The notes: generated by a model from the sequence alone, not told the origin. Positions 20,944 through 37,336 are shown, numbered from the stretch's first letter. The stretch: DNA of 37,336 bases from a virus (IMGVR_UViG_3300031779_000006:1-37336); one strand, 5' to 3'. A program made the numbers and translations.

Positions 20944-20992
20944 CCCCAGAGCCGTAGTCCAGCTGCCGCGGCGGGGCTACGCTTAGCACCAA

Positions 20993-21017: not shown

Positions 21018-21052
21018 ATTTCCTCTCCCCCCGGGAGGTCCCGGCTCCTGTC

Positions 21053-22732
21053 ATGTCCGTCCTCACCGTCGTACCGGATGTCTGGCTGCCAGACGGCACC
21101 GTGCTGCGCGGCCAGGATGCTCTCGGCGTGCAGCAGCCCAGATTCTGGACCGCTCCGCCCCGGCACCGGGTCAAGACCGATGGCTGCCCGGCCTGCGCGA
21201 ACGCCGACTACGCCGCCGGCTGCGGGGACTATGCCTCGGCCGACATGCTCGAATGGGCGGCCGGGCTCGGCTACGACCTGGATCCGTGGCAGCAGTGGTG
21301 GCTGACCGAGCTGTGCGGGACCAAGCCGGACGGCCGCTGGTCCGCGTTCGAGGGCATGCTGATCTGCTCCCGGCAGAACGGGAAGAACCAGGCTGCTGAG
21401 GTGCGGGAACTCGCTGGCATGTTCTTGTTCGGCGAGTCGATGATCATCCATACCGCTCATGAGTTCAAGGCCGCCGCGGAGCATTTCCGCCGGGTCCGGG
21501 ACATGGTCACCGGCTGGGACGAGCTGCGCCGCCGGGTCAAGGCCGTCACCACCTCCCACGGCGACGAGGCCATCGAGCTGCGGCCCGCCCCGACGCTGAT
21601 CTTCGGCTCCGGCGGCCGGCGCATCCGCCGCAACGTCGCCGCCCGGCTGCGGTTCCTGGCCCGCTCCCGCGGATCGGGCCGCGCGTTCACCGCCGACACG
21701 GTGGTTTACGACGAAGCGATGATCTTGAGCGACGAAGTGGTCGGGGCCTCGCTGCCGACCCTGAGCGCCGTGCCGAACCCGCAGGTCATCTACATGGCCA
21801 GCGCCGGTTACCGGGACTCCATCCAGCTGGCCGCGGTGCGTCGCCGGGTGCTCAAGCGCGACCCCACGCTGATGGGCGCCGAGTGGTCGATCAACCCGCA
21901 CACCGACACCTGCCCGCGCGATGAGATGCGGGGCCGCAAAGTCAACCGGTACGTGGTCTGCGCACAGCACGACGACCGGGATGACCCGCGCTCCTGGGCC
22001 AAGGCCAACCCGGCGCTCGGCGTGCGGATCGCCGTCGACCACGTCGTGCACGAGCTGGAGGCGATGACCGCCCCGACGTTCGACCGGGAAAGGCTCGGCG
22101 TCGGCGACTGGCCGGCCGGGGACGAAGCCTGGGCGGTGATCAGCGAGGAGGCGTGGGGCGCCTGCGCGATGTCCGACCCCGGTGGCGCCACCCGGCCGGT
22201 TACCTTCGCCATCGACATCGACCCCGATATGCTGTCCGCCTCCATCGCCGCCTGCTGGGAGCGGCCCGCCCAGCCCGGCAGCCCGGAGCCCAGGTTCGTG
22301 ATCGAGATCCCGCGCGGCTGCCACCGGGAGGGCACCGCCTGGATCATGCCGCAGCTGCTGGAGCTGCGCCGTAAGTGGAAGCCTGCCGCTGTCGCTATCC
22401 CGCGCAACGGCCCGGCCGCCGCGCTGATCAGTGACGCCGAGAAGCAGGGCATGGAGATCTTCGCGATGTCCAGCGCGGACGAGGCCGCCGCGTTCACCCT
22501 GCTGGTCACCGGGGTCCGCGACCGGACCCTCCTGCACCTGGGCCGCGAGCTCGCTCCCGGCCTGCACTCCGCGGTAGCCAGTGCCGAGACCCGCGACGTC
22601 GGCGACGGCGGCCGGGCCTGGTGCCGCCGCGACTCCGCATCCGACATCACCCCCGTTACCAGCGCGACCAACGCGCACTGGGCGCTGAACCGCAAGCGCC
22701 GTCATTACGATCTTTTGGCTTCAGTCAGGTAG
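21053..22732 (+). CDS. terL: terminase large subunit
   Basis: LDPWQ, SRQNGKN (Walker A), VVYDEA (Walker B), WAKANPALG, FAIDID nuclease, SDITPVTS. Confidence 0.95.
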   Translation: MSVLTVVPDVWLPDGTVLRGQDALGVQQPRFWTAPPRHRVKTDGCPACANADYAAGCGDYASADMLEWAAGLGYDLDPWQQWWLTELCGTKPDGRWSAFEGMLICSRQNGKNQAAEVRELAGMFLFGESMIIHTAHEFKAAAEHFRRVRDMVTGWDELRRRVKAVTTSHGDEAIELRPAPTLIFGSGGRRIRRNVAARLRFLARSRGSGRAFTADTVVYDEAMILSDEVVGASLPTLSAVPNPQVIYMASAGYRDSIQLAAVRRRVLKRDPTLMGAEWSINPHTDTCPRDEMRGRKVNRYVVCAQHDDRDDPRSWAKANPALGVRIAVDHVVHELEAMTAPTFDRERLGVGDWPAGDEAWAVISEEAWGACAMSDPGGATRPVTFAIDIDPDMLSASIAACWERPAQPGSPEPRFVIEIPRGCHREGTAWIMPQLLELRRKWKPAAVAIPRNGPAAALISDAEKQGMEIFAMSSADEAAAFTLLVTGVRDRTLLHLGRELAPGLHSAVASAETRDVGDGGRAWCRRDSASDITPVTSATNAHWALNRKRRHYDLLASVR

Positions 22733-22738
22733 GCAGAC

Positions 22739-23068
22739 ATGAACGGGCTAGACGAGGCCGCCGTGGTGGCCAGGCAGGACCTGATCGCAGCCGACCCCCG
22801 GGCGCCCTGGGATGTCCTGGTGCTGGCCGGCCACGTGCAGCCGTACATCGAGGCCGCGCAGGACCCCCGGGTGAGCATCGACATCCTGCCCGTGCCGCTA
22901 CCGCCACGATCAGCCAGCAAGACCGGCACCGAAGACACCGCAGGAGGAGACCATGCCGCCCAGGACCCATCACACCACAGCCGAAGCAGCCGAGCCGGAA
23001 GCGGCGCCGGGCACCAGCCCGGTACCCGGAAAACCGCTGAGCCAGGTGGAGGCGGAAGCACCGCCTGA
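22739..23068 (+). CDS. hypothetical protein
   Basis: SD AGGTAGG; plausible N-terminal half; 3' end overlaps next ORF by 116 nt. Confidence 0.5.
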   Translation: MNGLDEAAVVARQDLIAADPRAPWDVLVLAGHVQPYIEAAQDPRVSIDILPVPLPPRSASKTGTEDTAGGDHAAQDPSHHSRSSRAGSGAGHQPGTRKTAEPGGGGSTA

Positions 23069-23216
23069 CGAGGAGACCGCCGCGCTGTGGGCCGCCGAGT
23101 ACGAGTCCCGGATGGGGGCTCATGAGGCCGCCCTGGCCGCGGCTGCGGCACCCGCTGAGGCCGAAGCCGCCGAGGAGACGAGCAACCCGCGGGACTGGTC
23201 ACCGTCTGAGTTATAG
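22953..23216 (+). CDS. acidic Ala/Glu-rich hypothetical protein
   Basis: Strong SD AGGAGGAG, high GC3. Confidence 0.7.
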   Translation: MPPRTHHTTAEAAEPEAAPGTSPVPGKPLSQVEAEAPPDEETAALWAAEYESRMGAHEAALAAAAAPAEAEAAEETSNPRDWSPSEL

Positions 23217-23279
23217 CCGCGTACACCCTCTATATAGTCGGCGCGCGGCGCTTACCCCACGCCAGATCGGAAAAAAGTT

Positions 23280-23585
23280 ATGACAACTTTGAGTGAGCGC
23301 CCGGCTCCGCTCCCGGACCGGATCCAGGAGGACCGCACCGAGCGGGCCGAGGCCGCCGGCGCCGTCGCGGAACAGGTCCACGGCCGGGCCGTGCTCACCG
23401 CCATCGGCGCGGTGTTCTTCGCCATCGGCTGGGTGATCGGAGCCGTCGTGAGCATCCTCGGGTACATGTGGGGCGCGCTCCGGTTCGGGTACGCCCAGGG
23501 CCGGATGGTCGTGCCGTCGCCGCCCCGGACGCCGAGCCAGCCTAGGCCGGCGAGCAGCGGTGCCTTACCAGGTCACCCCGGTTGA
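23280..23585 (+). CDS. membrane protein
   Basis: Long hydrophobic segment; TATAGT -10-like element upstream. Confidence 0.7.
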   Translation: MTTLSERPAPLPDRIQEDRTERAEAAGAVAEQVHGRAVLTAIGAVFFAIGWVIGAVVSILGYMWGALRFGYAQGRMVVPSPPRTPSQPRPASSGALPGHPG

Positions 23586-23781
23586 CGGCGGCTTCAAGGT
23601 GGTCAACACCGAGACCGGCAAGATGGTCAACCCGGGCGGCAGGCCGCTGCCGCACGTGATCGCCACCAAGCAGTTTCGGGTGCTGTCCGGACTGGAGAAC
23701 GGCTGGGCGCCGACCGGTGAGCCGTCCGAGCTGACCCCGGACGACAAACCTGACCTGTACGCCTGGGACAGCGCCAGCTGA
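23560..23781 (+). CDS. hypothetical protein
   Basis: MPYQV...FKVVNTETGK pattern, high GC3. Confidence 0.7.
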   Translation: MPYQVTPVDGGFKVVNTETGKMVNPGGRPLPHVIATKQFRVLSGLENGWAPTGEPSELTPDDKPDLYAWDSAS

Positions 23782-23793
23782 TCCGGACGGCCG

Positions 23794-24069
23794 CTACCCG
23801 CGCCGGCCGCCGGTCGCCTGCCGCAGCGCCCGGGCTGCGCCGGACCCGCCCGGGTAGCGGAACGCGCGCTGCTGCGCCGAGCCGGCCGGGGCGGCGCTGC
23901 GGTCCCCGTCCACGCCGGGTTCACCCATGTTGTCTTCCATGGCGTTCATGTGGTCGCCGGCGGCGCTCATGTGGGCCTTGGCCATCGCCAGGTGCCCGGC
24001 CGGGCTCATGTCCGGGGCGCCGTCGTCGTGCGCGTCCAGGTCGGTCTTCGGGGTCTTGTCGTCGGCCAT
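23794..24069 (-). CDS. hypothetical protein
   Basis: SD GAGGAGGAG on minus strand, high GC3. Confidence 0.75.
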   Translation of the reverse strand: MADDKTPKTDLDAHDDGAPDMSPAGHLAMAKAHMSAAGDHMNAMEDNMGEPGVDGDRSAAPAGSAQQRAFRYPGGSGAARALRQATGGRRG

Positions 24070-24192
24070 CTCTCCTCCTCGTGCCGGGGATGGCCGCCGG
24101 CTCCGCGGGCACCGGGCCGCAGCGGCTAGCCTTCAGTATGACCCAGGTTCCGCCGTCTCGCCCGAAGGCCCGCCGCGTCCGATAATGGTGGC

Positions 24193-24351
24193 ATGCAGCT
24201 GATAGTGGACCTGGATGACGGGACCGGCCGGGACAAGCTGATGGAGATCCTGGACACACTGTCCGCCTACCGCCCGTATGTGCGCACGGCGATCATCGTG
24301 GCCAGCTACGATCCGGCCCAGGTGGAGCCGCCCGCCGAGACGGTGGCGTGA
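24193..24351 (+). CDS. small hypothetical protein (52 aa), possibly leaderless; not in ORF track
   Basis: GATAAT 6 nt before ATG; MQLIVDLDDG... Confidence 0.6.
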   Translation: MQLIVDLDDGTGRDKLMEILDTLSAYRPYVRTAIIVASYDPAQVEPPAETVA

Positions 24352-24506
24352 TGGCCGCGGTGATCGTCCGGCTGGAATGCGCCGACACCGGAGAGGCCGA
24401 TCAGCTCGCCGCGGCCGTCCGGGACGCCGGGGTGCTGACATACCAGGCCCGCGAGGACGGCAGGACGATCTTCATTCACGTCACCGAGACCATGGTCGAA
24501 CCGTGA
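24351..24506 (+). CDS. small hypothetical protein (51 aa), not in ORF track
   Basis: TGATG overlap; MAAVIVRLEC... Confidence 0.6.
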   Translation: MAAVIVRLECADTGEADQLAAAVRDAGVLTYQAREDGRTIFIHVTETMVEP

Positions 24507-24700
24507 TCCTCATCGAGCAGCATGCCGGATTCTGCAGGCGACGGCGGCCAGGCTGCGGCGAAGCGGGCATCTGGAAACCCTTCTACCAGGGCTTCATCTG
24601 CGAGAACTGCCTGCTGCTCGATCAGGCTGACGTCCGGGCCGGGCGCAATCCTCCCGGTGACGGCGGCGTCGGCACGCTGTTCCGCCAGGCGGACGAATGA
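24503..24700 (+). CDS. small four-Cys protein (65 aa)
   Basis: GTGA overlap; C-x6-C...CENC. Confidence 0.6.
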   Translation: MILIEQHAGFCRRRRPGCGEAGIWKPFYQGFICENCLLLDQADVRAGRNPPGDGGVGTLFRQADE

Positions 24701-24939
24701 GCGATCCTCCCGCCGATGAGAACATCGTCTCGGTGCACATCCCGTCTGCCGCGCTGGCCGGCGAGATCGAGTTCGCGATCGCCTACACCATCGCGTGCAA
24801 CCCGGGCCGTAATTTCGCCGCGCCGCCGGATCGCAAGCTGCTCGCCGAGGCGATCGTGGCCATGCTGTACGAGCGCGCGGAGGCCGGGCTGTCAGGAATG
24901 AGGATCGAAAACGCCGGCCAGCCTGGCGGGAGTTCATAA
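24697..24939 (+). CDS. hypothetical protein
   Basis: ATGA overlap. Confidence 0.6.
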   Translation: MSDPPADENIVSVHIPSAALAGEIEFAIAYTIACNPGRNFAAPPDRKLLAEAIVAMLYERAEAGLSGMRIENAGQPGGSS

Positions 24940-24965
24940 ACAGACGTAACCTTGCGTTAGCCATA

Positions 24966-24989
24966 GCCCGCGGCCGGAACGGAGCCGGG
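24966..24989 (+). promoter_or_regulatory. leader hairpin motif copy 3 (portal)
   Basis: GCCCGCGGCC-GGAAC-GGAGCCGGG, preceded by TAACCT. Confidence 0.75.
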
Positions 24990-25108
24990 TCCGTCCGTCC
25001 GTCCGCAGGGGAGCCTTCAGGTCCGTGAAGGCGATCGAGCGTATCACCTGCCGCGTCAGCGGTTCTTCTGCGCACCCTCTTTCGTGTGAGAGGGGGTGAT
25101 ATGGGAGT

Positions 25109-26679
25109 ATGGGACTTTTCGAGCGTATCCAGTCGAGCAGGGCTGAGACACGTGTGATTGGCGGGGTGCCTTGGCGCCCTTGGGACAGTCCTTACTGGTT
25201 AGGCGTTTTGATACTGGAGGGCCTGTCCATCCTAGTAGACAGGTTTTCGGCACCGACCGGGCTCTCGGTCTGCCCGCCCTGTACGCCGGCACCAACCTGC
25301 TGGCGTCCTCGTGCGCGGCGCTGCCGCTGAAGCTGTACGTCAAGCCCGGCCCGCGTGACAACCGGACCCGGCGGTACACCGGCCCGTCGATTTTCGACAA
25401 CCCGAGCTCCACCGGAACGATTTTCGACTGGCTGTTCACGGCCATGACGTCGCTGCTGCTGCAGGGCAACGCGTGGGGGTACATCACCGGGCGCGACGGC
25501 TACGGGCTGCCCAGCGGCATTGAGTGGATCCCGCCCGAGGACGTCAACGTCACCGACGACGAGATGCAGCCGTGGAACCCGATGCGTGCCCGGATCTACG
25601 TCTACGGCCGGCTGATGGACCGCAGCGAGCTGTTCCACGTCAAGGCGTTCAGCTTGCCCGGGCGCATCGAGGGGATTTCCCCGCTGCGCGCGTTCGCGCT
25701 GACCATCCTGTCCGGGTTGGAGGCCGAGCGCTACGGGACCGACTGGTATATGGCCGGGGGTTTCCCACCTGGGACTTTCCAGAACAACGAGCTGGAGGTC
25801 TCCGACGAGCAGGCCCAGGAGATCCGGGCCATGCTCGTGTCCACGATGCGCCGCCGTGAGCCGCTGGTGTACGGACGCGACTGGGACTACAAGCCAGTAG
25901 TGGTGCCGCCGAGCGAAGCGCAGTTCATTGAGGCGCTACGGATGAATGCGACGCAGATTGCCTCGGTGCTAAACCTGCCACCAGATCGCATTGGTGGTAC
26001 TCGCGGGGACAGCTTGACCTATAATACTGTAGAGCAAAGCACACTGCAAGTTATAGAAGCGTTGCGGCCGTGGCTCGTGAGGCTGGAGACGGCGTTCTTC
26101 AACCTGCTGCCGACCAACCGGTACTGCCGCTTCAACAGCGATGCCATGCTCAAGACCGATCTCAAGACCCGCACCGAGATCTACGACCTGCAGCGCTCAA
26201 TGGGCCTGCGGTCCATTGACGAGATGCGCGACCTGGAGGACCTGGAACCGATCCCCGGCGGGCAGGGCAACGAGTACATCCCCCTGGACGTCATGGTGGC
26301 GATGGCCCGGTCGATCCGCGGCATCCCCAAGTCGATGGAGTCGGCGATCGACCTGGAGATGGACCTGGCGGCCGACAAGCTGCAGGACCTGGCCAAGGAA
26401 GGGCTCGCCGCGCCGACTCCCGCGCCGACTCCCGAGGTTCCCTCGGCGGAGCAGATGCTCGGGCAGATCATCGGATCCCAGCGGCACTACGGCACGCGCG
26501 AGGAGCGCGACGACGCCGAGCTCATCTGGAATTTCCTGCAGGCCAAGCGCGCGGCGGAGCGCGCCCAGGCCCACCGGCAGGCGGACGGCCCCGAGTTCGT
26601 GGGCGCCTGGATCCCGAGCAAGCGGGACCTGGTGCTGTCCGGGGCGAATGGCAGCGGAAACGGCGGCGATGGTCACTGA
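25109..26679 (+). CDS. HK97-family portal protein, reading frame broken near 25199-25203 (alternative TTG starts 25171/25180)
   Basis: LLLQGNAWGYI, LFHVK...GISPL, SEAQFIE...IASVLNLPP..IG, YNTVEQ, SIDEMRDLEDLEPIPGG; portal-like N-terminus MGLFERI lies in another frame. Confidence 0.9.
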
Positions 26680-26694
26680 TGAAAGGTCTGTTAC

Positions 26695-27720
26695 ATGAGT
26701 GAATCCAGGGCCGAGATGACGTCAGCGGCCATCAACGACCTCCCCGATTCTGCTTTTGCCTATATAGAGCCTGGTGGCTCTAAGGATGCCGGGGGGAAGA
26801 CGATACCTAGGAGCAAGCGGCACTTTCCTGTGCATGACGAGGCTCACGCTAGGAATGCACTCGCTCGCGCTCCGCAGTCGCCCTTCGGCAAGCAGGCCAT
26901 GAGCAAGATCCTGGCCGCATGCCGCAAGTTCGGGGTCACGGTCTCCGGCGACAACCGCGCCGCGTTCGGCGAGCTGCCCCCGGACGGCATGCCCGAGCGC
27001 CGCTTCACCCGGTTCCCGCCCGAGGTGCGCCAGGAGGCCGAGCACGGCCCGCAGTTCATCTACGGCTACGCGGCGGCGTTCGGCAAGCTGAGCCGCAAGC
27101 TGGGCGGCTTCGTGGAGCAGGTGGACCCGACCGCGTTCAACGAGACCAAGACCCTCGGCTGGCCCGACGTGGTCTGCAGGTACAACCACAAGGACGACGC
27201 CCTGCTGGGTACCACGCACGCCGGCACGCTGCGGCTGGCCACTGACCAGACCGGGCTCGCCTATGAGGTCAATCCGCCGCACGCCCGCGCCGACGTCCTC
27301 GAATACGTGACCCGCGGCGACGTGCGGCACAGCTCGTTCGCGTTCCGGGTGTTCCCCGGCGGCGACGAGTGGGGCGTGTCGGAGTTCAACTACCCGATGC
27401 GCACGTTGCTGTCGGTGCAGCTGGTAGACGTGGCGCCCGTGTTGGACCCGGCCTACCCGGATGCCACCGCCGGCGCCCGCGCGCTCAACGGCGCAGTCCA
27501 GAGCCTCGCCGACTGGGTGCAGGCCGACGTGGAGGAGGTCCGCAGCAGGCTCAACGAAGGCCGGGCGATGGAGTTCTTCAAGCGCTACCGCGACATCGAC
27601 GGCGGCAGGCCGAAGCCTGACCAGCGCGTCCGGCCGCCCAAGAAGCCGGTACTGACCGGTGCCCAGGCCCTGCTCACCCTGCAGGCCAACATGGAAGACC
27701 CCTGGGTGGACGAGGAGTAA
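26695..27720 (+). CDS. HK97-family prohead protease with extra N-terminal (DUF6582-like) domain
   Basis: GYAAAF, GGFVEQV, YNH, SSFAF, DVAPVLDPAY; N-terminal NDLPDSAFA...RHFPVHDEAHARNALAR. Confidence 0.9.
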   Translation: MSESRAEMTSAAINDLPDSAFAYIEPGGSKDAGGKTIPRSKRHFPVHDEAHARNALARAPQSPFGKQAMSKILAACRKFGVTVSGDNRAAFGELPPDGMPERRFTRFPPEVRQEAEHGPQFIYGYAAAFGKLSRKLGGFVEQVDPTAFNETKTLGWPDVVCRYNHKDDALLGTTHAGTLRLATDQTGLAYEVNPPHARADVLEYVTRGDVRHSSFAFRVFPGGDEWGVSEFNYPMRTLLSVQLVDVAPVLDPAYPDATAGARALNGAVQSLADWVQADVEEVRSRLNEGRAMEFFKRYRDIDGGRPKPDQRVRPPKKPVLTGAQALLTLQANMEDPWVDEE

Positions 27721-27745
27721 CAACCACGCAGTAACCAGTGCAAGC

Positions 27746-27784
27746 GCGCTGAGGCCGTAGCTGATCAACGGACGGAGCGAGCGC
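27746..27784 (+). promoter_or_regulatory. leader hairpin motif, covarying copy 4 (major capsid)
   Basis: GCGCT-GAGGCC-GT(N13)AC-GGAGCG-AGCGC. Confidence 0.6.
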
Positions 27785-27820
27785 AGGTGCAGAAGGCAAC
27801 CAACGCGAAAGGGAAAGAAA

Positions 27821-29077
27821 ATGCCTTCTGAAGTCGCAAAGCGTCTGAGGGATCGGCGCCTCCAGGTATGGGAGGAGGCCAAGGGCATCGCCGAATCCGC
27901 CGCATCCGAGAACCGCGCCCTCACCGATGAGGAGCAGGGCAAGTGGGACGCGATGCAGGAGGAGATGCAGAAGCTTGACGTCCGGATCAAGGCGGTCCTG
28001 GACACCGAGAAGCGGGCCAAGGAAGCCGACGACGCGTTCGACGCGCTGTCCGGCCGCAAGCCCGCTGAGGGCCAGGCCGCCCGCACCGCCGGCGGGTCCA
28101 AGATGCTGGACGAGGTCCGCAAGTGGGCGCGCGGAGACGAGGGCGCCGGACGTGCCCTGGAGATCCGCCGCGCACCCGAGCTCGGCCCGATCAACTACCG
28201 CGTCCTGACTGCTGGGACGGGCGGTTCCGCTAGCAGTATCGTGCCGATCGATTTCTACGACATGCTCATCGCACACCTGATCGAAGTTTCGGGTGTCATG
28301 CAGTGCGGACCGACCGTGCTCAACACCGGAGGCGGCGAGACGCTGCAGGTGCCGAAGACGACCGCGCACTCCACCGCGGCCTCCGCGGCCCAGGCAGGCA
28401 CGCTCCCGACGTCGGACCCGACGTTCGGCATGCAGCCGTTGTCGGCCTTCAAGTACGGCATCATGCTCCAGGTCGCCCGCGAGCTCATTGACGACACGGC
28501 CGTCGATCTCCTCGGGTACCTGGCCATGCAGGCGGGACGCGCGCTGGGCAATGCCTTCGGCAACGACCTGGTCAACGGGACTGGCACCGGCCAGCCGGCC
28601 GGCCTGGTCAGCACCGCGACGGTCGGCGTGACCGGCTCGGTGACCGGCGTGGCCGGCGCGCCCAGCTACGCCAACCTGGTCGACCTGGAGTACAGCGTAA
28701 TAGCTCCATACCGACAATCAAGGTCGTGTTACTGGCTGGCCGCGGACAAGACCATCGGCGGGTTCAGGAAAATTACCGACACGGTCGGCAGGCCGATCTG
28801 GGAACCGTCCGCGGTCCTCGGGTCTCCCGACCTGCTGCTCGGCAAGCCCCTGGTCGCCGACCCGTTCATGCCCGCCATGGCGACCGGGTCCAAGTCCATC
28901 GCGTTCGGCGACTTCAGCCAGTACTTCGTGAGGCTGGTGGGAGGCGTGAGGTTCGAGCGTTCGGACGACTTCGCCTTCGGTTCGGACCTTGTGACCTTCC
29001 GTGCTATACTTAGAGGAGATGGTACCCTCGTGGACCGCACGGGCGCGATCAAGATGTACCAGGGCGCAGCTACCTGA
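27821..29077 (+). CDS. HK97-fold major capsid protein
   Basis: Coiled-coil delta domain, VARELIDD, GTGTGQPAG, DTVGRPIW, LLGKPL, IAFGDFSQY. Confidence 0.95.
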   Translation: MPSEVAKRLRDRRLQVWEEAKGIAESAASENRALTDEEQGKWDAMQEEMQKLDVRIKAVLDTEKRAKEADDAFDALSGRKPAEGQAARTAGGSKMLDEVRKWARGDEGAGRALEIRRAPELGPINYRVLTAGTGGSASSIVPIDFYDMLIAHLIEVSGVMQCGPTVLNTGGGETLQVPKTTAHSTAASAAQAGTLPTSDPTFGMQPLSAFKYGIMLQVARELIDDTAVDLLGYLAMQAGRALGNAFGNDLVNGTGTGQPAGLVSTATVGVTGSVTGVAGAPSYANLVDLEYSVIAPYRQSRSCYWLAADKTIGGFRKITDTVGRPIWEPSAVLGSPDLLLGKPLVADPFMPAMATGSKSIAFGDFSQYFVRLVGGVRFERSDDFAFGSDLVTFRAILRGDGTLVDRTGAIKMYQGAAT

Positions 29078-29271
29078 CCTGCGGAAATGCGGCTACGCAT
29101 GCAGGCGTCACCGGCAAGCCCAGGCTCTGGCTGCAGGACGATGAGCGCATGCTGTAACCGCACTACTTCCACGGAACGTCACAAGGTTTGTTACACGATG
29201 AGTAGCTGGTATACTGGGAGAACGGACGGTAAGCCCACCGCCCGCTCTCAGCCAGGACCCTGTATAGGAGG

Positions 29272-30093: not shown

Positions 30094-30100
30094 CAAGCAG

Positions 30101-30141
30101 CCCCGGCCCGCGCAGCGAGTGGCCGCCCGCGCGGGCCGGGG
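30101..30141 (+). terminator. 13-bp perfect hairpin
   Basis: CCCCGGCCCGCGC...GCGCGGGCCGGGG. Confidence 0.55.
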
Positions 30142-30162
30142 AGCCAGGAAAGCGAGGCTAGC

Positions 30163-30750
30163 ATGCGCTCGGTCACGATGATCGTCAACCTGTCCGGCGG
30201 CGGCCCGGGCGGCCGGGACTGGCGGGACTTCCCGGCCGGGGCGTCGCTGGACGTGGAGGACTGGGAAGCCGAGGACCTGATCCGGATCGGGCTCGCCGTC
30301 GCCGGTCCGGAGGGGGGCGAGGGCGCTTCCGCCGCGCCCGAGCCCGAGGCGGAGGCCCCGGCCGCTGAGTCCGAGCCCGGGGCCGGGGCACCCGCCGAGC
30401 CGGCCGAGTATGAAGACGGCACGGGCGTCTCCCCGCTGGCCGAGGTGTCTGTGCTGGCCGAGACTTCCGGGACCGCGGCGGGGGCAACGGACCCAGAGCC
30501 AGAACCCCCGGCGCCCGCACCCGAGCCGGAGCCAGCGCCGCCGGAGCCGGAGCAGCTGCCGGACGAGGCGCCCGTGTCCCCGGAACCTCCCACCGATGGG
30601 AACAACCCGGAGCCGCCTCCGCTGGCCCCGGCGCCGCACCAGAACAAGCAAGCCTGGATCGACTGGGCGATCAGCCAGGGCGCCGATCCGGATACCGCTC
30701 ACAACATGACCAAGGCCGACCTGATGTCCCGTTACGGTGGTCGGCTCTAG
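30163..30750 (+). CDS. Pro/Glu-rich protein with small C-terminal helical domain, probably head-associated
   Basis: EAEDLIRIGLA N-domain; NKQAWIDWA...TKADLM C-domain; follows the capsid gene. Confidence 0.75.
   Translation: MRSVTMIVNLSGGGPGGRDWRDFPAGASLDVEDWEAEDLIRIGLAVAGPEGGEGASAAPEPEAEAPAAESEPGAGAPAEPAEYEDGTGVSPLAEVSVLAETSGTAAGATDPEPEPPAPAPEPEPAPPEPEQLPDEAPVSPEPPTDGNNPEPPPLAPAPHQNKQAWIDWAISQGADPDTAHNMTKADLMSRYGGRL
30586..30603. repeat. near-palindromic repeat copy 3 (inverted, intragenic)
   Basis: CCTCCCACCGATGGGAAC is the reverse complement of 9526-9543. Confidence 0.85.
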
Positions 30751-30770
30751 ACTGTCCAATAAGAGGGATT

Positions 30771-30793
30771 GCCCGCGGCCTACGGGAGCCGGG
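30771..30793 (+). promoter_or_regulatory. leader hairpin motif copy 5
   Basis: GCCCGCGGCC-TACG-GGAGCCGGG (C-UACG-G tetraloop), preceded by TAGACT. Confidence 0.75.
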
Positions 30794-30813
30794 CTCCGAG
30801 ATAGGAGCCCATC

Positions 30814-31374
30814 ATGGCTGACAGCACCCAGGTCCCCGGCTACGACCGGACCCTGGCCAACCGCGAGCCCCCGGGCCGGTCCGGTACCGGCAGCGGCGGC
30901 GACCTCGTCACCAGCGAGCCCGGCCAGTACCCGCCGGTCGCGCCGGGCGACACCACGATCTTCGGCGGGCCGCTGCCCACCGGGACCGGCGCGCCTGGCA
31001 CCGCCGGAGGCGACTACGGCGGCCCCGACACCAGCCAGGCCGGCCAGCTGGGCGACAGCTTCACCGGGCTGTCCCGGGACGACATCACCGATACGGGCGC
31101 GCCCGGTACTGATGGCGCGGACATCCCGGCTGGGGCCGGCCCGGACACGGTGAAGTTCACCCGGCCCGGGTCCTACCTGTCCGGCAGCTACGCCCAGGAC
31201 ACGGTCCGCGGCAAGGTCGATGGCCCGGCCGAGTGGACCGAGGCCAACTCCGGCGGCTACGGGACAGACGGGCCGAAGCTGCCCGGGATGAAGGAACCGA
31301 CCCCGGACGGCGGCCCGTTCCAGCCGGGTTCCGGCGGCCGGGTCATGCGCGGCGGCCGGGCCGTCCGCGGCTGA
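30814..31374 (+). CDS. Gly/Pro/Thr-rich protein, probably virion-associated
   Basis: SD AGGAG; repeated TGAPGT. Confidence 0.75.
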   Translation: MADSTQVPGYDRTLANREPPGRSGTGSGGDLVTSEPGQYPPVAPGDTTIFGGPLPTGTGAPGTAGGDYGGPDTSQAGQLGDSFTGLSRDDITDTGAPGTDGADIPAGAGPDTVKFTRPGSYLSGSYAQDTVRGKVDGPAEWTEANSGGYGTDGPKLPGMKEPTPDGGPFQPGSGGRVMRGGRAVRG

Positions 31375-31377
31375 GCC

Positions 31378-31686
31378 GTGCCGTTCAGCTCGGGCACCGT
31401 GGAGATCGGCGATACCGCCTCGCCGATCTGCCCGGTCGGCCGGGGCCGCACGGTCAAGGTGAAGAACCTGGACAACAGCACGACCGTGTACGTCGGCGGC
31501 CCGGACGTGACCACGGACGGCGACGGCGCAGGTTACCCGCTGGACGGCCGGGAATCCGAGACGTTCAGCGCCCCGCTGCCGCGTGAGTCGGTCGTCATCC
31601 CGGCCCCGGCCGACGACATGGCCCCGGACGTGCTGTACGGGCGCACTGAGCGGGGCAAGGCCAGGGTCGCCTGGATCTCGGCGTAG
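31378..31686 (+). CDS. small beta-rich protein, possible capsid decoration
   Basis: VKVKN....VYVGG.DVT....GYPL pattern. Confidence 0.7.
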   Translation: MPFSSGTVEIGDTASPICPVGRGRTVKVKNLDNSTTVYVGGPDVTTDGDGAGYPLDGRESETFSAPLPRESVVIPAPADDMAPDVLYGRTERGKARVAWISA

Positions 31687-31694
31687 GAGGAGCG

Positions 31695-32102
31695 ATGCAG
31701 GACCTCAGCAGTCTCGCTGATAACTCTATAACTGCCACGTCACAAGCAGCGGGTAATATGACCAGCTCGAACCGGCAGGCGATGACCGCGCCGGGCACCC
31801 AGCCGGTCACTCCGCTGCCGCCCGCCCGGGACCAGGACAGCCCCGACCTGACCATGACCGCGGAGATCCCGCCGGGCACGTCCGGTAAGCCGCAGGCCAG
31901 CAAGCAGGCCGGGGAACCGAACCCGCCGCACCCGGCCTGGGGCAAGACCACGACCCCGGAGGTGGTCCGGATCCCGGCGCCCGTGCCGCCCGACCTGATC
32001 GGCGACGCCGGCCAGGCCGTCATCGGCGTGGCCGGCCCGGCCCGGGGAGCCACGTCCGGGCGCGCATCGAGCGCCGCAGCAAGCAGCAGCAACGGAGGTT
32101 GA
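31695..32102 (+). CDS. hypothetical protein
   Basis: SD AGGAGGAG. Confidence 0.75.
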   Translation: MQDLSSLADNSITATSQAAGNMTSSNRQAMTAPGTQPVTPLPPARDQDSPDLTMTAEIPPGTSGKPQASKQAGEPNPPHPAWGKTTTPEVVRIPAPVPPDLIGDAGQAVIGVAGPARGATSGRASSAAASSSNGG

Positions 32103-32103
32103 C

Positions 32104-32310
32104 ATGCCTGACGCACCCAGCCCGATCACCAGCCCGCCCGACGTAGACGGCCAGCCCTGGGACGCCACGTCCGAGTCCTCGGTCGGCAAGTGGGACTGCC
32201 TGGAAGACGTCGCCGGCGAGATCGGTTTTGACGGCAGCCAGAGCGGCGACCACTTCGCCGGCGCCGACCGGCACGCCGGCGGCCAGAGCGGCCCGTGGAA
32301 GCAGACCTGA
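32104..32310 (+). CDS. hypothetical protein
   Basis: SD GGAGG. Confidence 0.75.
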   Translation: MPDAPSPITSPPDVDGQPWDATSESSVGKWDCLEDVAGEIGFDGSQSGDHFAGADRHAGGQSGPWKQT

Positions 32311-32312
32311 TC

Positions 32313-32453
32313 ATGGCCGACAACTCGCATCAGGGCAACGCCAACAAGGCCACGGTCGGCACGGGCGGCACGGTTAAGCCCGCCGGGCAGGAGCTGTCCA
32401 CCGTCAAGAACGCCAACCTGGCCCATCAGGGCAACGCCAACCTGGCGCACTGA
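32313..32453 (+). CDS. small protein (46 aa) with HQGNAN repeats, not in ORF track
   Basis: ATG 2 nt after previous stop, TGATG overlap; CATCAGGGCAACGCCAAC occurs twice. Confidence 0.65.
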   Translation: MADNSHQGNANKATVGTGGTVKPAGQELSTVKNANLAHQGNANLAH

Positions 32454-33151
32454 TGGCCCAGCCGTGGCCGGACGGAGACGAGCCGGGCAACCCCGGCGGC
32501 CTGGAGATGGGCACCGTCAAGGCGGACGGCGGGGAGTGCGCCCGGGAATGGCCGAACGGGGCACCCGGCCACGGCTACTACGACCCGCCGCCCACTGTGC
32601 CCCCGCCGCCGTACGTGCCCGCGCTGGAGGTTACCGGGGTGCAACCGGATCACGGCGACGTGGCCGGCGGCGCCCTCACGGACGTGTACGGCGCGGACTT
32701 CACCACGGGCGGCACTACCACGGTCACGTTCGGCGGCGCGGCGGCGACATCGGTCGTGGTGGTCACGCCGGAGCACCTGACCTGCTTCCCGCCAGCCGGC
32801 ACCGCAGGCCCCGCCGACGTCACCGTCACGACCCCGGACGGCTCGGCGACCCTGCCCGGCGGGTACACCTACGAGCTGGCAACCGCACCGGTCACGGCGG
32901 TCGCGGACTTCACCTACACCCCGTCCAACCCGACCACCCAGACGATGGTCACGTTCGACGCGTCGGCCAGCACACCCGGCGCCGGGCAGACGATTACCAG
33001 CTACGCGTGGCTGTTCAACAACTCGGCTACCCGGAGCGGTGTGACGTGCACCTGGCGGCTGCCCAGCGGTCACGGCGAGTACGACGCCCAGTTGACCATC
33101 ACCGACTCCGGGAGCGCAACCGACAGCCTGACGCAGGTGATCACGATATGA
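32453..33151 (+). CDS. IPT/TIG plus PKD Ig-like domain protein
   Basis: VTGVQPDHG..AGG...VYGADF...VTFGG; ADFTYTP...VTFDASAS...ITSYAW.F...LTITDSG. Confidence 0.85.
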   Translation: MAQPWPDGDEPGNPGGLEMGTVKADGGECAREWPNGAPGHGYYDPPPTVPPPPYVPALEVTGVQPDHGDVAGGALTDVYGADFTTGGTTTVTFGGAAATSVVVVTPEHLTCFPPAGTAGPADVTVTTPDGSATLPGGYTYELATAPVTAVADFTYTPSNPTTQTMVTFDASASTPGAGQTITSYAWLFNNSATRSGVTCTWRLPSGHGEYDAQLTITDSGSATDSLTQVITI

Positions 33152-33915
33152 CCGAGCCCCGCATCCTTGTCATCACCCCGTCCCGGGGGCGGTCCGGGCG
33201 GCTCACGGCTATGCTGGACGCGACCCTGTCCACCTCCGGGCCGGGTACCCACGTCGCGGTGTGCACCGATGCCGACGACCCGGACCGCGGCGGGTACGAG
33301 CAGCTGGCCGCCGACGCCCGCGAGCTGTGGCCGGGCCGGACCTTCTGGCACCGCGGCCCGCGCAAGTCCCTGGCCGCCTGGACCAACTACCTGGCCGTGT
33401 CCTGGCCGCGCGCCGCCCGGTACGGTTACCTGGCCAGCCTGGGCGATGACCACGTCCCCCGTACGCAGGGCTGGGACGGTGTCCTGACAGGTGCGATCGA
33501 GGCGATGGGCGGTACCGGGATCGCCTACGGGGACGACGGCTGGCAGCATGAGAACATGCCGACCGCCTGGGTGATGAGCGCCGGCATCGTCCGGGTGCTC
33601 GGCTGGCTGTTCCTGCCCGGCCTCGGGCACGGCTACTTCGGCGACAACGCCATCCGGGACCTGGGCGAGCTGGCCGGCTGCCTGCGCTACTGCCCGGGGG
33701 TGAAGATCATCCACGAGCACCCGGACGCCGGCAAGGCCCCCGGGGACGTCACCTACGCCGAGGCGGTGCCGTCCTGGGCGGGTGATGAGCAGGCGTACCT
33801 GGCCTGGGGCCGCTCCCCCGGTGACGATATGCCCAGTCAGCGTGACCTGGACGTGATCGCCGTCCGGAACGTCATGAGGCTGCGGGCACGCACCGTGCCG
33901 GGGGTGCCGGCGTGA
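33148..33915 (+). CDS. GT-A fold glycosyltransferase
   Basis: ILVITPSRGR, LGDDH, GYFGDN, IIHEHP. Confidence 0.8.
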   Translation: MTEPRILVITPSRGRSGRLTAMLDATLSTSGPGTHVAVCTDADDPDRGGYEQLAADARELWPGRTFWHRGPRKSLAAWTNYLAVSWPRAARYGYLASLGDDHVPRTQGWDGVLTGAIEAMGGTGIAYGDDGWQHENMPTAWVMSAGIVRVLGWLFLPGLGHGYFGDNAIRDLGELAGCLRYCPGVKIIHEHPDAGKAPGDVTYAEAVPSWAGDEQAYLAWGRSPGDDMPSQRDLDVIAVRNVMRLRARTVPGVPA

Positions 33916-34469
33916 CCCTGACCGCGCAGCATACCGCCAGGGCCGGGGGCAGCTGGTGTGATATCCAGGGCCACCTGGCGTTCCTGTACGCCCAGGCGGA
34001 AGGCCGGGCGGTGATCGCCGAGCTGGGCGTCCGCGGCGGGAACTCGACCTGCGCGTTCCTGGCCGCGATCGAGACCGCCGGGTCCGGGCAGCTGTGGTCG
34101 GTGGACGTCGCCTCGCCGGGTGTCCCGGTGTCCTGGCACGACCTGCCGTACTGGCATTTCCTGTGCGCCGATGACACCAGCCAGCAGGCCATGGACTGGC
34201 TGCCGCCGAAACTGGACCTGCTGTTCATCGACACCAGCCACGGGCTCGATCACACCCTCGCTGAGCTGACCGCGTACGGTCCGCGGGTCCGGTCAGGTGG
34301 CGTCATCCTGTGCCACGACACCTGCTGGCTGCCCGGCGACGTGGAAACCCGCGAGCCGGTCGGGCCGGTCGCCCGCGCGCTGGATGTATGGTGCCAGGCC
34401 CAACCGTATGAACTGTCTTGGAGCAACCGGGCCGGGTCGTTTGGCCTGGGCGTGATCGAGGTGCCATGA
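33912..34469 (+). CDS. class I SAM-dependent methyltransferase (Methyltransf_24-like)
   Basis: ELGVRGGNST, WSVD, DLLFIDTSH, GGVILCHD. Confidence 0.9.
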   Translation: MTLTAQHTARAGGSWCDIQGHLAFLYAQAEGRAVIAELGVRGGNSTCAFLAAIETAGSGQLWSVDVASPGVPVSWHDLPYWHFLCADDTSQQAMDWLPPKLDLLFIDTSHGLDHTLAELTAYGPRVRSGGVILCHDTCWLPGDVETREPVGPVARALDVWCQAQPYELSWSNRAGSFGLGVIEVP

Positions 34470-34771
34470 GCGACAAGGTGATCGTCGGCGACGGGTCCGC
34501 CCAGCGGATGGCCGAGTGGGAGGCGCAGTACGCGCACGAGTGCGCCGCGGTCGCCGAGGGCTGGTGCCCCGTGCACCGGACCGTGCTGCACCCGGTGGAG
34601 ATCCGCGGCGGCGATGAGATGGTGGCCGGGCACTGCTCGTTGTGCAGCCGGTACTGGTTCTACGACACGAAACTGGCCGAGGTCGGCTGGATGCTGGACC
34701 ACGATCCGCACACCGGAGTGTGGGTGCCGCCGGAGCGGCCGAAGCGGTGGCCCGGCTGGAGCCCGCTGTGA
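34466..34771 (+). CDS. zinc-binding protein, tandem paralogue A
   Basis: CPVH...HCSLC; ATGA overlap. Confidence 0.75.
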   Translation: MSDKVIVGDGSAQRMAEWEAQYAHECAAVAEGWCPVHRTVLHPVEIRGGDEMVAGHCSLCSRYWFYDTKLAEVGWMLDHDPHTGVWVPPERPKRWPGWSPL

Positions 34772-35010
34772 GCATCCTCAAGGTCACCGCGGTCACTGAG
34801 GGCCTGTGCCCGGTGCATGGCACCGAACTGCACCCGGTGCAGATGCAGTACCCGGTCCGGCAGCACGGCCGCGACATCGCCGGGCACTGCTCGCCGTGCG
34901 GCCGGTACTGGTTCTATGACCCGGACGAGGACGAAGCCGGCTGGATGCTGGACCACGATCCGAACACCGGGGTCTGGGTGCCCCCGCAACGCCACGAGTG
35001 GTCGGTGTGA
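34768..35010 (+). CDS. zinc-binding protein, tandem paralogue B
   Basis: CPVH...HCSPC; GTGA overlap. Confidence 0.75.
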   Translation: MSILKVTAVTEGLCPVHGTELHPVQMQYPVRQHGRDIAGHCSPCGRYWFYDPDEDEAGWMLDHDPNTGVWVPPQRHEWSV

Positions 35011-35168
35011 GCCCCCGGCTGGCCAGCCAGGCCCTGGCCGTGGTGGCACTGGGAGCAGCCGTGTACGAGGCGGTTACCAGGCTGGCCCCGTCCTGGCTGC
35101 AGGCCATGTTCATGTGGTTCGTCATCGCGGTGCTCGCCTGGGGCCTGGCGAGGGCGAAGCGGCCATGA
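35007..35168 (+). CDS. small 2-TM membrane protein (53 aa), not in ORF track
   Basis: GTGA/ATGA overlaps; hydrophobic. Confidence 0.6.
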   Translation: MSPRLASQALAVVALGAAVYEAVTRLAPSWLQAMFMWFVIAVLAWGLARAKRP

Positions 35169-35428
35169 CCGCGCGGTACTGGGTGCTCGCCTCCGATGAG
35201 CTGATCGAGACTATGGACCCGTCCCTGCTGCCGGACGGGATCAGGTTGACCGGCATCCGCGCTGACTGGGATCCGGCCGCGCACCTGCTGGAGCGGTCGC
35301 ACTGGTACCTGGTCACCGACGACGAAGCGCCCAAAGACCTGGACGGCCGACAGGTGGAGCTGGTCCTGGGCCGGCGCGGGCGCGAAGGCGCGAGATCCGT
35401 GATCATCGAACGGCGGGTGGTCGCGTGA
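35165..35428 (+). CDS. hypothetical protein
   Basis: ATGA overlap; MTARYWVLASDEL... Confidence 0.7.
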   Translation: MTARYWVLASDELIETMDPSLLPDGIRLTGIRADWDPAAHLLERSHWYLVTDDEAPKDLDGRQVELVLGRRGREGARSVIIERRVVA

Positions 35429-35525
35429 GCATCCCCAAGGTTCTCCCAGGTAAACTGGCAGTAAGAGCCCCGGCGAGGCAGCAACCTCCCGGGGCAGTGA
35501 CCGAACCTGATGGAAGCAGGCCGGT

Positions 35526-35999
35526 ATGCCCAAGGGTACGTGCTCGATCTGCGGTGACGCACACTACGCACGGGGCTGGTGCAGGAATCATTACCGGCGC
35601 TGGATGCGGTACGACGACCCTCTCGGCGGTACCTGGCCGTCAGCTGACGCTGCATGCACGATCGGTAACTGCAAGGAACCGCACCTGGCGCGTGGCATGT
35701 GCGAGAAGCATTACCGGCGCTGGCATAGGACCGGCGATCCGCTGGTGGTACGTGAACGGCCTCCGCAAGCAGGCGTCCTCAATTTCAATTGGAGAGGTGA
35801 TGCAGTCAAGTACAGCGGGCTGCATCTTCGAGTACGTAAAGAACGCGGTCCGGCTTCAGCCCAGGTTTGCGCGCACGCTGACGAGACGTGCAAAGGTCGG
35901 CTGGAATGGGCGAATATCTCGCATGAGTATCTTGGTGTCGAAGATTTCATGCCGTTGTGCCAGTCACACCATGTTCGGTATGACAGGGAGGCTGGATGA
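35526..35999 (+). CDS. free-standing HNH-like endonuclease with two Cys/His repeats
   Basis: CSIC...ARGWCRNHY, CTIGNC...ARGMCEKHY; YSGLHLRV...GPAS...EWAN...PLCQSHH; low GC3. Confidence 0.8.
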   Translation: MPKGTCSICGDAHYARGWCRNHYRRWMRYDDPLGGTWPSADAACTIGNCKEPHLARGMCEKHYRRWHRTGDPLVVRERPPQAGVLNFNWRGDAVKYSGLHLRVRKERGPASAQVCAHADETCKGRLEWANISHEYLGVEDFMPLCQSHHVRYDREAG

Positions 36000-36649
36000 T
36001 GGGGTCTGAGCAAAGCCACATACCACGCGTCTCAGTAATAACACCAACGTGGCAAAGACATGACCTACTACTTAGCAGGACAGTTCCCTCGGTGCAGGCG
36101 CAGCGTTATCCGTCCGTGGAGCACATCATCGTCTCGGATGGTCCGGACCCCGAGCTCAAGGACAAGCTGGCCCAGCCCTGGACGGATGGCTGGCGGAACC
36201 TGTGGTACCACGAGCTGTCCGTGCACGACGAGGCCGAGCACTTCGGCGCGCCAGCCCGCAACGCCGGCCTGGAGCTAGCCAGCGGCACGTACGTCACCTA
36301 CTGCGACGACGATGACAGTTTGCGGCCCTGCCACTGCTACCTGCTGGCTGAGGCGCTGACTCAGCATCCGGAAGCGGACTTCGCGGTGAGCCGGATGATG
36401 AGCCACGGCCCGTACGGCGACATCGTGATTGGCACCGGCCCGCTGGCCGCCGGGAACCTGGGTACCCCAATGGTCATGCACAGGCGGAACGTGCCCGGGA
36501 AGTACGGCACCTGGGGCGAGGACGGTTCCTGGGGGCCGGGTGACCGGTTCGAGGACTGGCACCTGATCTGGGCCTGGATCCAGGCGGGGGTTGAGTACGT
36601 GCGCGTGCAGGCCGAGACTTCCGATGTGTGGCCGTCGATCTTCCGCTAG
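35996..36649 (+). CDS. glycosyltransferase family 2
   Basis: VSVITPT, EHIIVSDG, ARNAGL, YCDDDD, EDW. Confidence 0.9.
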   Translation: MMGSEQSHIPRVSVITPTWQRHDLLLSRTVPSVQAQRYPSVEHIIVSDGPDPELKDKLAQPWTDGWRNLWYHELSVHDEAEHFGAPARNAGLELASGTYVTYCDDDDSLRPCHCYLLAEALTQHPEADFAVSRMMSHGPYGDIVIGTGPLAAGNLGTPMVMHRRNVPGKYGTWGEDGSWGPGDRFEDWHLIWAWIQAGVEYVRVQAETSDVWPSIFR

Positions 36650-36657
36650 GAGCTGTC

Positions 36658-36927
36658 ATGACCATGCCTGATGAGTACGTGCCCTGCGTGGTGGACCCGG
36701 CTAACAGCTTCCTGTCGATGCCGCCCGGGCCGGCCGAGCTGCTGACCGGGATGGAGGGAGCGGCGGTCGGGGTACTGACCATCAGGACGCCGACCACCAC
36801 GCTGACCGTGAAGCTGCCGAAGAACCAGGTGCTCGCCTGGGGCAAGATGATCACCGAGCTGGGTGAGGAGCTGGAAGGTTCAGGGCTGCTGGTGGCTACC
36901 CGTAAGAACACGCTGCTGCGCCCGTGA
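36658..36927 (+). CDS. hypothetical protein
   Basis: SD AGGAG, ATG. Confidence 0.7.
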   Translation: MTMPDEYVPCVVDPANSFLSMPPGPAELLTGMEGAAVGVLTIRTPTTTLTVKLPKNQVLAWGKMITELGEELEGSGLLVATRKNTLLRP

Positions 36928-36981
36928 GCTACGAGGAGGTCAGCCAGCGAGAGGATCGGTAGTACTAGCGGAGGGAATAAA

Positions 36982-37336
36982 ATTAGGATTTTCGCAGGTC
37001 ACGACGGCGGCTCGGGTTGTAGCTACTATCGCATCGAGCTCCCTTTGCGGGAGATGGCCAGGCACGGGCACGAGGTGACGTTCGCCGACGCGGGCGACCG
37101 GAACCACCCGCCCGTGGTCACCCTGGACATGCTCCGCGGCTACGACGTGGTCGTCGCGCAGCGGTGGAACAAGCACGACGGGCTCGGTACCTGGCGGCGG
37201 GCCAGCCTGTGGGCGAAACTCGTCTACGACCTGGACGACGACCTATGGCACATCACGGCGGAAAACTGGAACGCCTATCAGCACTACAACCAGCCGGAGA
37301 TCCGCGACGCGACTACCCATGCTGCCGAAACCGCCA
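36982..37336 (+). CDS. glycosyltransferase-like protein (GT-B type N-terminus), 3'-truncated, probable ATT start
   Basis: (M)RIFAGHDGGSGCSYYRIELPL...HGHEV...DVVVAQR...LVYDLDDDLW; GGAGG 7 nt before ATT. Confidence 0.7.
   Translation, partial: MRIFAGHDGGSGCSYYRIELPLREMARHGHEVTFADAGDRNHPPVVTLDMLRGYDVVVAQRWNKHDGLGTWRRASLWAKLVYDLDDDLWHITAENWNAYQHYNQPEIRDATTHAAETA

Follow-up and report, generated by a model that had tools for sequence, protein, structure and literature searches.

Islands of A/T-ending codons and a TTA-led portal gap in a high-GC virus from soil metagenomes

How do genes in which almost every codon ends in G or C come to contain short, sharply bounded islands of codons ending in A or T, and how can a portal protein be made from an essential gene whose reading frame is broken inside such an island? 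Both questions are raised by the virus record IMGVR_UViG_3300031779_000006, a DNA of 37,336 nt that was analysed over its whole length and is referred to here as the window (positions are counted from its first letter). Islands of this type, hereafter called patches, occur in its large terminase (terL), portal, protease, capsid and glycosyltransferase genes, and the portal gene is interrupted by five bases that begin with an in-frame TTA. Several patches sit where relatives of the window carry selfish DNA-cutting elements, and they are therefore likely to be scars of conflict. About half are likely to be marks of present or past cutting by homing endonucleases, encoded either within inteins or by free-standing HNH and EndoVII-type genes.

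Synonymous patches in conserved genes

The window has a G+C content of ~0.69. Pfam matches identified its portal, prohead protease and HK97-type capsid genes, and a PHROG match identified terL (21053-22732, plus strand). The closest capsid of a named phage matched at ~32%, and capsids of prophages and of contigs from metagenome-assembled genomes, mostly from Streptomyces and other Actinomycetota, were 49-67% identical to that of the window; of two genome scans for a prophage or host link, the first was empty and the second gave matches limited to distant prophages. All 24 sequencing runs listed as holding the region were soil metagenomes, and there were no RNA runs among them. The relatives comprised 80 capsid loci from IMG/VR with identities of 66-100%, further loci for portal, GT2 and terL and from metagenome scans, and five relatives taken as whole records of 131-210 kb. 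One locus, L001, is a copy of the window. Alleles at least 93% identical to a kept one were left out before counting, as were alleles covering less than 85% of the region and loci too short for judging a neighbouring gene; the alleles kept at this threshold are still related. The capsid tree was a quick tree, and the association statistics were calculated without tree-aware pairing.

Codon usage was expressed as A/T3, the fraction of codons ending in A or T with ATG and TGG excluded, for which the background in core genes is 0.08-0.11. The initial annotation had reported sharply bounded patches on this background, and all those it listed were indeed present. When codons were shuffled 1000 times within 16 securely framed genes, with the first 10 and last 5 codons trimmed, seven eight-codon segments with at least six A/T-ending codons were observed, compared with a shuffle mean of 0.14 and a maximum of 3. 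Thirteen-codon segments with at least six such codons numbered 13 (mean 2.2, maximum 8). When trimming was extended to the first 60 codons, seven segments were observed, compared with a mean of 1.5 and a maximum of 7. Furthermore, a two-state hidden Markov model with A/T3 states of 0.08 and 0.44, whose gene set included two mis-framed open reading frames (ORFs), called all listed patches except the weakest, at terL 21391-21460. The patches outside the portal 5′ end are as follows, with A/T-ending codons given as a fraction of the codons counted.

3601-3672, plus strand: patch directly after the intein of an FtsK-like gene, 9/22
21391-21460, plus strand: weak terL patch, 7/22
22702-22732, plus strand: terL 3′-end patch, 6/10 (22702-22729); A/T3 also raised family-wide, 0.20
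25906-26061, plus strand: internal portal patch, 23/51 by the hidden Markov model; 25/58 over 25891-26065 and 10/13 over 26020-26058
26746-26871, plus strand: protease 5′ patch over a DUF6582-like domain, 21/42; most relatives raised up to codon 60
27821-27870, plus strand: capsid start patch, 7/15; family-wide A/T3 of 0.44 in the first 10 codons
28205-28300, plus strand: internal capsid patch, 10/30, within a family-wide raised zone
28694-28729, plus strand: internal capsid patch at an invariant motif, 7/8 (28697-28720); 11/12 codons off the family majority
28978-29026, plus strand: capsid 3′ patch, 10/17
31698-31763, plus strand: 5′ patch of ORF 31695, a conserved gene of unknown family, 11/16; family A/T3 of 0.12
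36002-36110, plus strand: GT2 5′ patch beside an HNH-like gene, 19/36 (17/32 in the comparison with relatives)
36982-37050, plus strand: 5′ patch of the last glycosyltransferase gene, 8/23; block 36978-37013 identical in L084 and L011

The patches change codons and leave the protein largely as it is. The residue of the window equalled the family majority at 259 of 308 patch codons and at 1533 of 1862 other codons (p=0.52), whereas its codon differed from the majority codon at 159/274 positions in patches versus 408/1616 outside, the direction of change being towards A/T. Synonymous switches at the first or second position of Arg, Leu and Ser codons were likewise raised in patches (21/274 versus 38/1616, p=3e-5). 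That protein motifs are preserved thus stood, except that the terL patch opens with a Cys to Ala change; at this position, the +1 position of a terL intein site, Cys is the commonest residue (10 of 29 alleles).

Relatives bear patches of their own, in places that are partly the same and with letters that are mostly different. For the internal portal patch, two capsid patches and the patches in GT2 and ORF 31695, the best relative shared 0.36-0.57 of the synonymous codons, far below the 0.75-0.94 of background segments, so that no donor of these tracts is present in the sample of up to 52 distinct alleles per gene. The patch in ORF 31695 is nearly private to the window. Identical patches in relatives are not the general case, and three patches at gene starts are partly shared: the portal-start patch has 51 identical bases in common with L054, the last glycosyltransferase start has 36 in common with L084 and L011, and 14 of 19 A/T codons of the protease-start patch recur in L069.

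Several observations stand beside these. The capsids nearest to that of the window in protein (L054, L019, L020, L084; 92-97%) share 0.47-0.53 of synonymous codons with it, and several at 88-90% protein identity share more (~0.6-0.65), because the nearest alleles are A/T3-richer throughout. The last glycosyltransferase gene is without ATG, GTG or TTG where its relatives start; judged from the sequence, ATT at 36982, 7 nt after a GGAGG motif (36968-36990) and common to L084 and L011, is likely to be its start. A C5-methyltransferase-like gene, which fell below the Pfam cut-off, lies with a DUF6939 gene on the minus strand at 13506-15501 and has a mild A/T3 stretch of its own at ~13756-13814.

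Inteins and free-standing nucleases at the patches

The window itself carries one intein and two free-standing nuclease genes.

1507-4713, plus strand: FtsK-like ATPase gene (FtsK PHROG), with an intein inserted just after the GK of its Walker A motif
2425-3600, plus strand: intein with a LAGLIDADG-type endonuclease domain (Pfam LAGLIDADG_3, E 5e-7)
29272-30093, plus strand: free-standing HNH endonuclease gene (Pfam HNH_3, PHROGs), probable start ATG 29281
35526-35999, plus strand: free-standing HNH-like gene overlapping the GT2 start (PHROG HNH, E 5e-14; no Pfam match)

Further inteins were found in relatives, as inserts of ~950-1125 nt with intein ends in portal (five alleles) and terL (L021, L104). 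Five distinct relatives (L021, L050, L061, L076, L114) have a portal intein at the point that corresponds to 26025/26026 of the window, and this point falls inside the densest patch (26020-26058). The terL inteins of L021 and L104 are inserted at 21391/2 and 21385/6, where the weak terL patch begins. A protease intein with Intein_splicing and HNH_3 domains is present in P0006, a longer and distant homologue (~45% identical), at the point matching 26841/2, inside the protease 5′ patch. Three of the four intein sites in terL, portal and protease homologues therefore lie within 10 nt of patches that had been drawn without the relatives, for which the chance is 0.0065. No new intein positions were found in 72 further loci, among which the known portal site recurred in a distant homologue, and there were no capsids with an intein among 7994 longer candidates, which is weak evidence. 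In P0001 and P0002, portal and protease are called as a single protein of 872-1023 aa.

For the FtsK-like gene, the viral scan returned the window copy only, and of three homologues from the whole records L195 and L196 were used and L194 was not. The intein site is empty in L195 and holds a mini-intein in L196, and the post-intein patch is absent from both. Intein homing co-converts flanking extein DNA, and such carriage of flanking DNA fits the post-intein patch better than escape does.

Free-standing nucleases showed a comparable relation to the patches. In relatives, optional nuclease genes are found ahead of portal, in the portal-protease and protease-capsid intervals, and downstream of capsid. 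Among 50 distinct alleles, the gene downstream of capsid was of the HNH_3 type in six and of the EndoVII type in seven. The last 48 capsid codons had an A/T3 of 0.30 in the 13 alleles with a downstream nuclease versus 0.18 in the 37 without (p=2.5e-4), whereas capsid codons 100-250, taken as a control, did not differ between carriers and non-carriers (p=0.22). The A/T3 excess of the six HNH_3 carriers peaked at capsid codons 389-400, which is the window patch at 28978-29025, and this peak was reached in 2 of 300 label shuffles. When the window was removed, the carriers still had a raised capsid 3′ end (0.42 versus 0.20, p=0.002; p=0.047 after correction for gene background), and they are scattered over several parts of the capsid tree. 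All six are off the majority codon at codons 377, 390, 398 and 403, none of which is significant under correction for 418 columns. L032, with a capsid 81% and an HNH protein 72% identical to those of the window, shares 8 of the 9 capsid codons 396-404 with it, rare ones included (rough corrected probability 0.005), and this identity ends before the end of the capsid gene. The capsid 3′ patch is thus a candidate target region of the downstream HNH family. For the internal capsid patches, HNH carriers were not different at 28205-28300 (p=0.48) and showed a weak tie at 28694-28729 (p=0.045; 0.09 background-corrected).

A second nuclease-adjacent patch, private to the window, opens GT2, where the window has 17 of 32 A/T-ending codons. 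Ten of the 16 other alleles have 0-4 of ~31 and are without such an HNH gene; the remaining six have 6-13 of ~31, with gene bodies that are A/T-richer throughout. The HNH-like gene at 35526-35999 was seen only in window-type contigs. Exchange of DNA between window-type and L054-type phages is documented by the recombinant contigs L009, L090 and L107, of which L009 joins the window capsid and HNH gene to L055-type downstream genes.

Upstream of the HNH gene at 29272-30093 there is a promoter-like site (29188-29215). This site, a short inverted repeat and a ribosome-binding site (29188-29280) are kept in most HNH_3 carriers, and the spacer between the capsid stop and the pre-HNH site varies among them. 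Further downstream, the region 3′ of the capsid module (30163-37336) encodes glycosyltransferases, a methyltransferase, a TIG/PKD protein and low-complexity proteins, and none of its genes was recognised as a tail gene; at 34466-35010 it holds two tandem paralogous small ORFs with Cys/His motifs, ~76% alike in DNA.

A number of findings weigh against a simple homing origin. The proposed coincidence of patches with insertion sites in relatives fails at codon 215 of terL, where L058 has an intein and the window is unpatched, and without the protease site the count drops to two of three sites (~p=0.04); moreover, the +1 Ser is found in 0 of 51 close protease alleles. At the portal site, intein-free relatives are only slightly raised (A/T3 of 0.12 versus a background of 0.07, p=0.035, with L001 in the set), the +1 Thr is kept in 44 of 48 alleles, the window included, and the A/T3 peak of the portal family falls on codons 246-270, for which no relative showed an intein. 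Carriers of an HNH gene between portal and protease show a diffuse A/T3 excess only. The p-values given here are optimistic, because the thinned alleles remain related. The proposal that patches are tied to homing nucleases was partly supported, by the intein sites, the capsid HNH carriers and GT2, and it did not extend to the four patches at 28205, 31698, 22702 and 27821, which are without a nuclease correlate. Of these, the capsid start and terL end patches are probably ordinary gene-end effects, and those at 28205 and 31698 are unexplained. The stronger claim, that the patches are escape alleles, does not fit every patch: the post-intein patch sits on an intein-bearing allele, so that no escape from that intein is needed, and only 5 of 40 intein-free true relatives reach an A/T3 of 0.25 at the portal site.

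The TTA-led gap in the portal gene

The 5′ end of the portal gene had been listed as a single A/T-rich patch, with no mention of a frame break. It is indeed A/T-rich, but it is not one open frame.

25109-25198, plus strand: portal codons 1-30, conserved N-terminus, A/T3-rich, 11/26
25199-25203, plus strand: portal coding gap of 5 nt, beginning with an in-frame TTA (frameshift-aware alignment)
25204-26679, plus strand: rest of portal, resuming at CGT (Arg); Pfam Phage_portal, E 2e-51
25204-25250, plus strand: second part of the portal 5′ patch, 11/16; extended to 25263 by the hidden Markov model

The conserved N-terminus starts at ATG 25109 and runs for 30 codons to TGG (25196-25198), with 26 of 30 residues equal to those of the gap-free relative L012. 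Five bases follow, TTA in frame, and the conserved frame continues from 25204; the zero frame past TTA reaches a stop 43 codons on, at 25328-25330. Of 46 distinct portal 5′ ends, 25, among them that of the window, have one or two gaps of this kind, each led by TTA, and the other 21 are gap-free; alignments with L012 and L067 showed that the flanks are contiguous in gap-free relatives. In total, 32 distinct gaps of 2-12 nt were collected, 29 in portal and 3 in terL. The codon at the end of the gap matched the preceding take-off codon at two or more positions in 30 of the 32 (permutation mean 8.2) and coded for the same residue in 24 (mean 6.7), and neither number was reached in 10000 permutations. 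Loci added later provided eight more gap contexts of up to 13 nt, one of them repeating a known gap. Elsewhere TTA is nearly absent: across four core genes it accounts for 5 of 146,258 aligned codons, with duplicates not thinned, and the other in-frame TTA codons of window ORFs, at 16747 and 23565, fall within the last seven codons of the small ORFs 16414-16761 and 23280-23585. Syntenic arrays of 37-39 tRNA genes in the relatives L198, L199 and L200 (G001, G003, G004) contain Leu CAA, GAG and CAG and no Leu-UAA; the array of a fourth relative ends at the contig end.

On these comparisons, the portal protein is likely to be made by ribosome bypassing. Peptidyl-tRNA-Trp would quit UGG when UUA goes unread and re-pair on AGG (25201-25203) five bases on, a near-cognate codon that matches TGG at two of three positions, after which translation would resume at CGU and yield a normal portal. 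Some features do not fit this as well: near the gap of the window there is no TGG in the right frame, 10 of the 32 gaps have in-frame lengths, and the L198-L200 arrays also lack Leu-UAG.

Assembly error was rejected, since numerous separate contigs, as well as a phage with 81% identity, have the same letters. The 70 nt flanking the gap are identical in 18 loci, several of which are the same contig repeatedly, L054-type phages have the same gap as the window, and Logan contigs of X12 and X20 span it without differences, the gap lying 11 letters from their ends. A start at TTG 25171 or 25180 in the resumed frame is possible for this allele. As a general explanation, such a restart was rejected, since codons 2-19 are equally conserved in gap and gap-free alleles (0.79 versus 0.77) and the lengths of the gaps are spread over all three frames. 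In the bypassing known from phage Hau3 (see below), Shine-Dalgarno-like and stem-loop stimulators lie upstream; here, a hairpin of 7 pairs can form at 25163-25180, with z=-0.8, and the 25 gap alleles have no structure in common.

Gaps, patches and nucleases were also associated with each other. Over portal codons 4-50, gap alleles had an A/T3 of 0.29 versus 0.15 in gap-free alleles (p=9e-5), or 0.18 versus 0.09 after background correction and without the window (p=1e-3). A gap was present in all seven phages with an HNH gene just upstream of portal versus 16 of 34 without (p=0.012), although the window has gap and patch but no HNH gene at this position. In terL, relatives have TTA-led gaps at codon 110, next to the intein site, and at codon 136, at the other end of the weak patch. 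These associations are correlational. It is possible, if rather speculative, that the hops arise as immunity to homing endonucleases: a UUA-led insert would destroy the target in an essential gene and be skipped by the ribosome, and the A/T islands would be the point-mutation version of the same defence. If true, the hops would be products of phage-against-phage conflict and not sensors of host development. As a separate observation, the portal region of L050/L051 combines two TTA gaps with a portal intein and with nucleases in three intergenic spaces; no tRNA genes are present in this record.

Origin of the patches and comparison with known systems

On balance, we favour the view that the internal and nuclease-adjacent patches were caused by conflict with homing elements. 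During co-infection, a nuclease would cut rival alleles at a conserved motif, and alleles that differ at silent positions would survive or be copied along with the element. In bacteria most new mutations run from G/C to A/T, and over repeated rounds this bias would therefore produce a sharp A/T island on a background with a GC3 (fraction of codons ending in G or C) of 0.9.

Alternatively, the patches could be kept for a purpose at the RNA level, late-gene translation being tuned by slow codons or weak structure in the vicinity of starts and of the hop. Six patches are indeed located at gene starts, and the capsid, protease and portal starts are raised family-wide. Three lineages have the 36-nt block around the inferred ATT start in identical form, and two have the 51-nt block that encloses the gap. 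Gap alleles with no HNH gene upstream are A/T-richer as well (17 alleles, p=0.004), and the GT2 patch folds weakly (z=+1.7). However, the internal patches differ between relatives, as their low best-match sharing shows, and the GT2 starts of G/C-rich relatives are not raised. Moreover, neither of the two promoter-like sites in 20900-37336 (1.0 expected) lies inside a patch, Rfam gave no match, and eight folds had no significant stability (z from -1.3 to +1.7). We regard an RNA-level purpose as unlikely overall. Mutagenic repair of nuclease breaks, with the patches as neutral debris near cut sites and not as selected resistance, would account for a directional shift to A/T in which C to G and G to C swaps are not raised (23/77 versus 250/935, p=0.59), a result that speaks against the favoured reading, and for a patch beside the window's own intein. 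It is still improbable: strand-asymmetric deamination was not seen, C>T giving way to G>A at neither the portal nor the terL intein site more clearly than in the background, and at four-fold sites in patches there are about as many transversions to A/T as transitions (33 versus 36).

Recombination of short tracts from relatives of lower GC, without a connection to target-site immunity, is a very improbable source. Recombinants do exist, the portal core of L050 has an A/T3 of 0.41 throughout and some blocks are common to relatives, but the internal patches have no donor in the sample, L050 is not among the best matches, and amino-acid divergence, which a low-GC donor was expected to raise, is unraised. 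Least likely of all is recoding under pressure from CRISPR or another RNA-guided system of the host. At 24-50 nt, the patch cores have the size of spacers, and conserved structural genes are common CRISPR targets; such a system, however, does not predict the coincidence with intein sites or neighbouring nuclease genes, and CRISPR escape usually needs only one or two changes.

Homing-element conflict has its closest parallel in the free-standing Seg and Mob endonucleases of phage T4 (SegG-gene 32, MobE-nrdB, SegF-gene 56), which cut neighbouring genes with co-conversion, according to the part of PMC2988022 that was available. Alike are the optional HNH-type genes between conserved genes, the exchange of flanking DNA and the candidate targets in a neighbouring gene, tens to hundreds of bases off. 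Unlike in T4, the targets here are sequence correlates, six sites within ~15 kb are occupied across the relatives of the window, and the high-GC background displays altered tracts as codon islands; synonymous islands are not described in the available part of that source. Clustering of free-standing endonucleases near essential genes is reported in the accessible text of PMC10448857, in whose main text the word "synonymous" does not occur, and the available part of PMC12724721 holds nothing specific on the point. A literature search for tracts of synonymous change or low GC at the homing sites of phages found nothing on point by title and start of abstract, with most subscription literature outside its reach. 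Intein homing offers a second parallel, with patches at insertion points in terL, portal, protease and FtsK-like genes, and exon co-conversion is described for introns (PMC2988022, in part). The difference is that three of the four such patches are on intein-free alleles, and four of the five intein-bearing portal alleles have near-majority flanks. If the homing reading is true, the homing-endonuclease targets of high-GC phages can be read from their codon islands, which offer specific sites for testing uncharacterised HNH and EndoVII-type enzymes.

For the gap, the known system is the Streptomyces phage Hau3 which, together with two prophages, has UUA-led coding gaps in the large terminase (3 of 100 genes), with bypassing supported by a reporter and mass spectrometry in the available part of PMC10732093. 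A search for portal TTA bypassing in metagenomes found no paper from 2020 on, again with most subscription literature outside it. As far as that part of the Hau3 report goes, in both systems a short insert in an essential packaging gene opens with an in-frame UUA, its flanks are contiguous in relatives, the zero frame stops and a landing codon ends the insert. They differ in the gene, portal here and terminase there, and in frequency (25 of 46 alleles versus 3 of 100 genes); the gaps here measure 2-13 nt at about nine positions, some in-frame, and landing in the window is near-cognate. Furthermore, no integrase match (PF00589/PF07508) was found in the five whole-record relatives, three of which are at least 90% complete and one of which is classed as a provirus, so that the role as lysis/lysogeny sensor proposed for the Hau3 type in temperate phages is doubtful here. 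The Hau3 type also goes with a host in which tRNA-Leu(UAA) is under developmental control; for the window, the nearest named capsids are mostly from Streptomyces and other Actinomycetota. The portal gaps would extend UUA bypassing from three printed terminase genes to more than 30 differently built gaps, and their gap-free sister alleles make the rules of take-off, landing and gap length, as well as the origin of the hop, directly testable.

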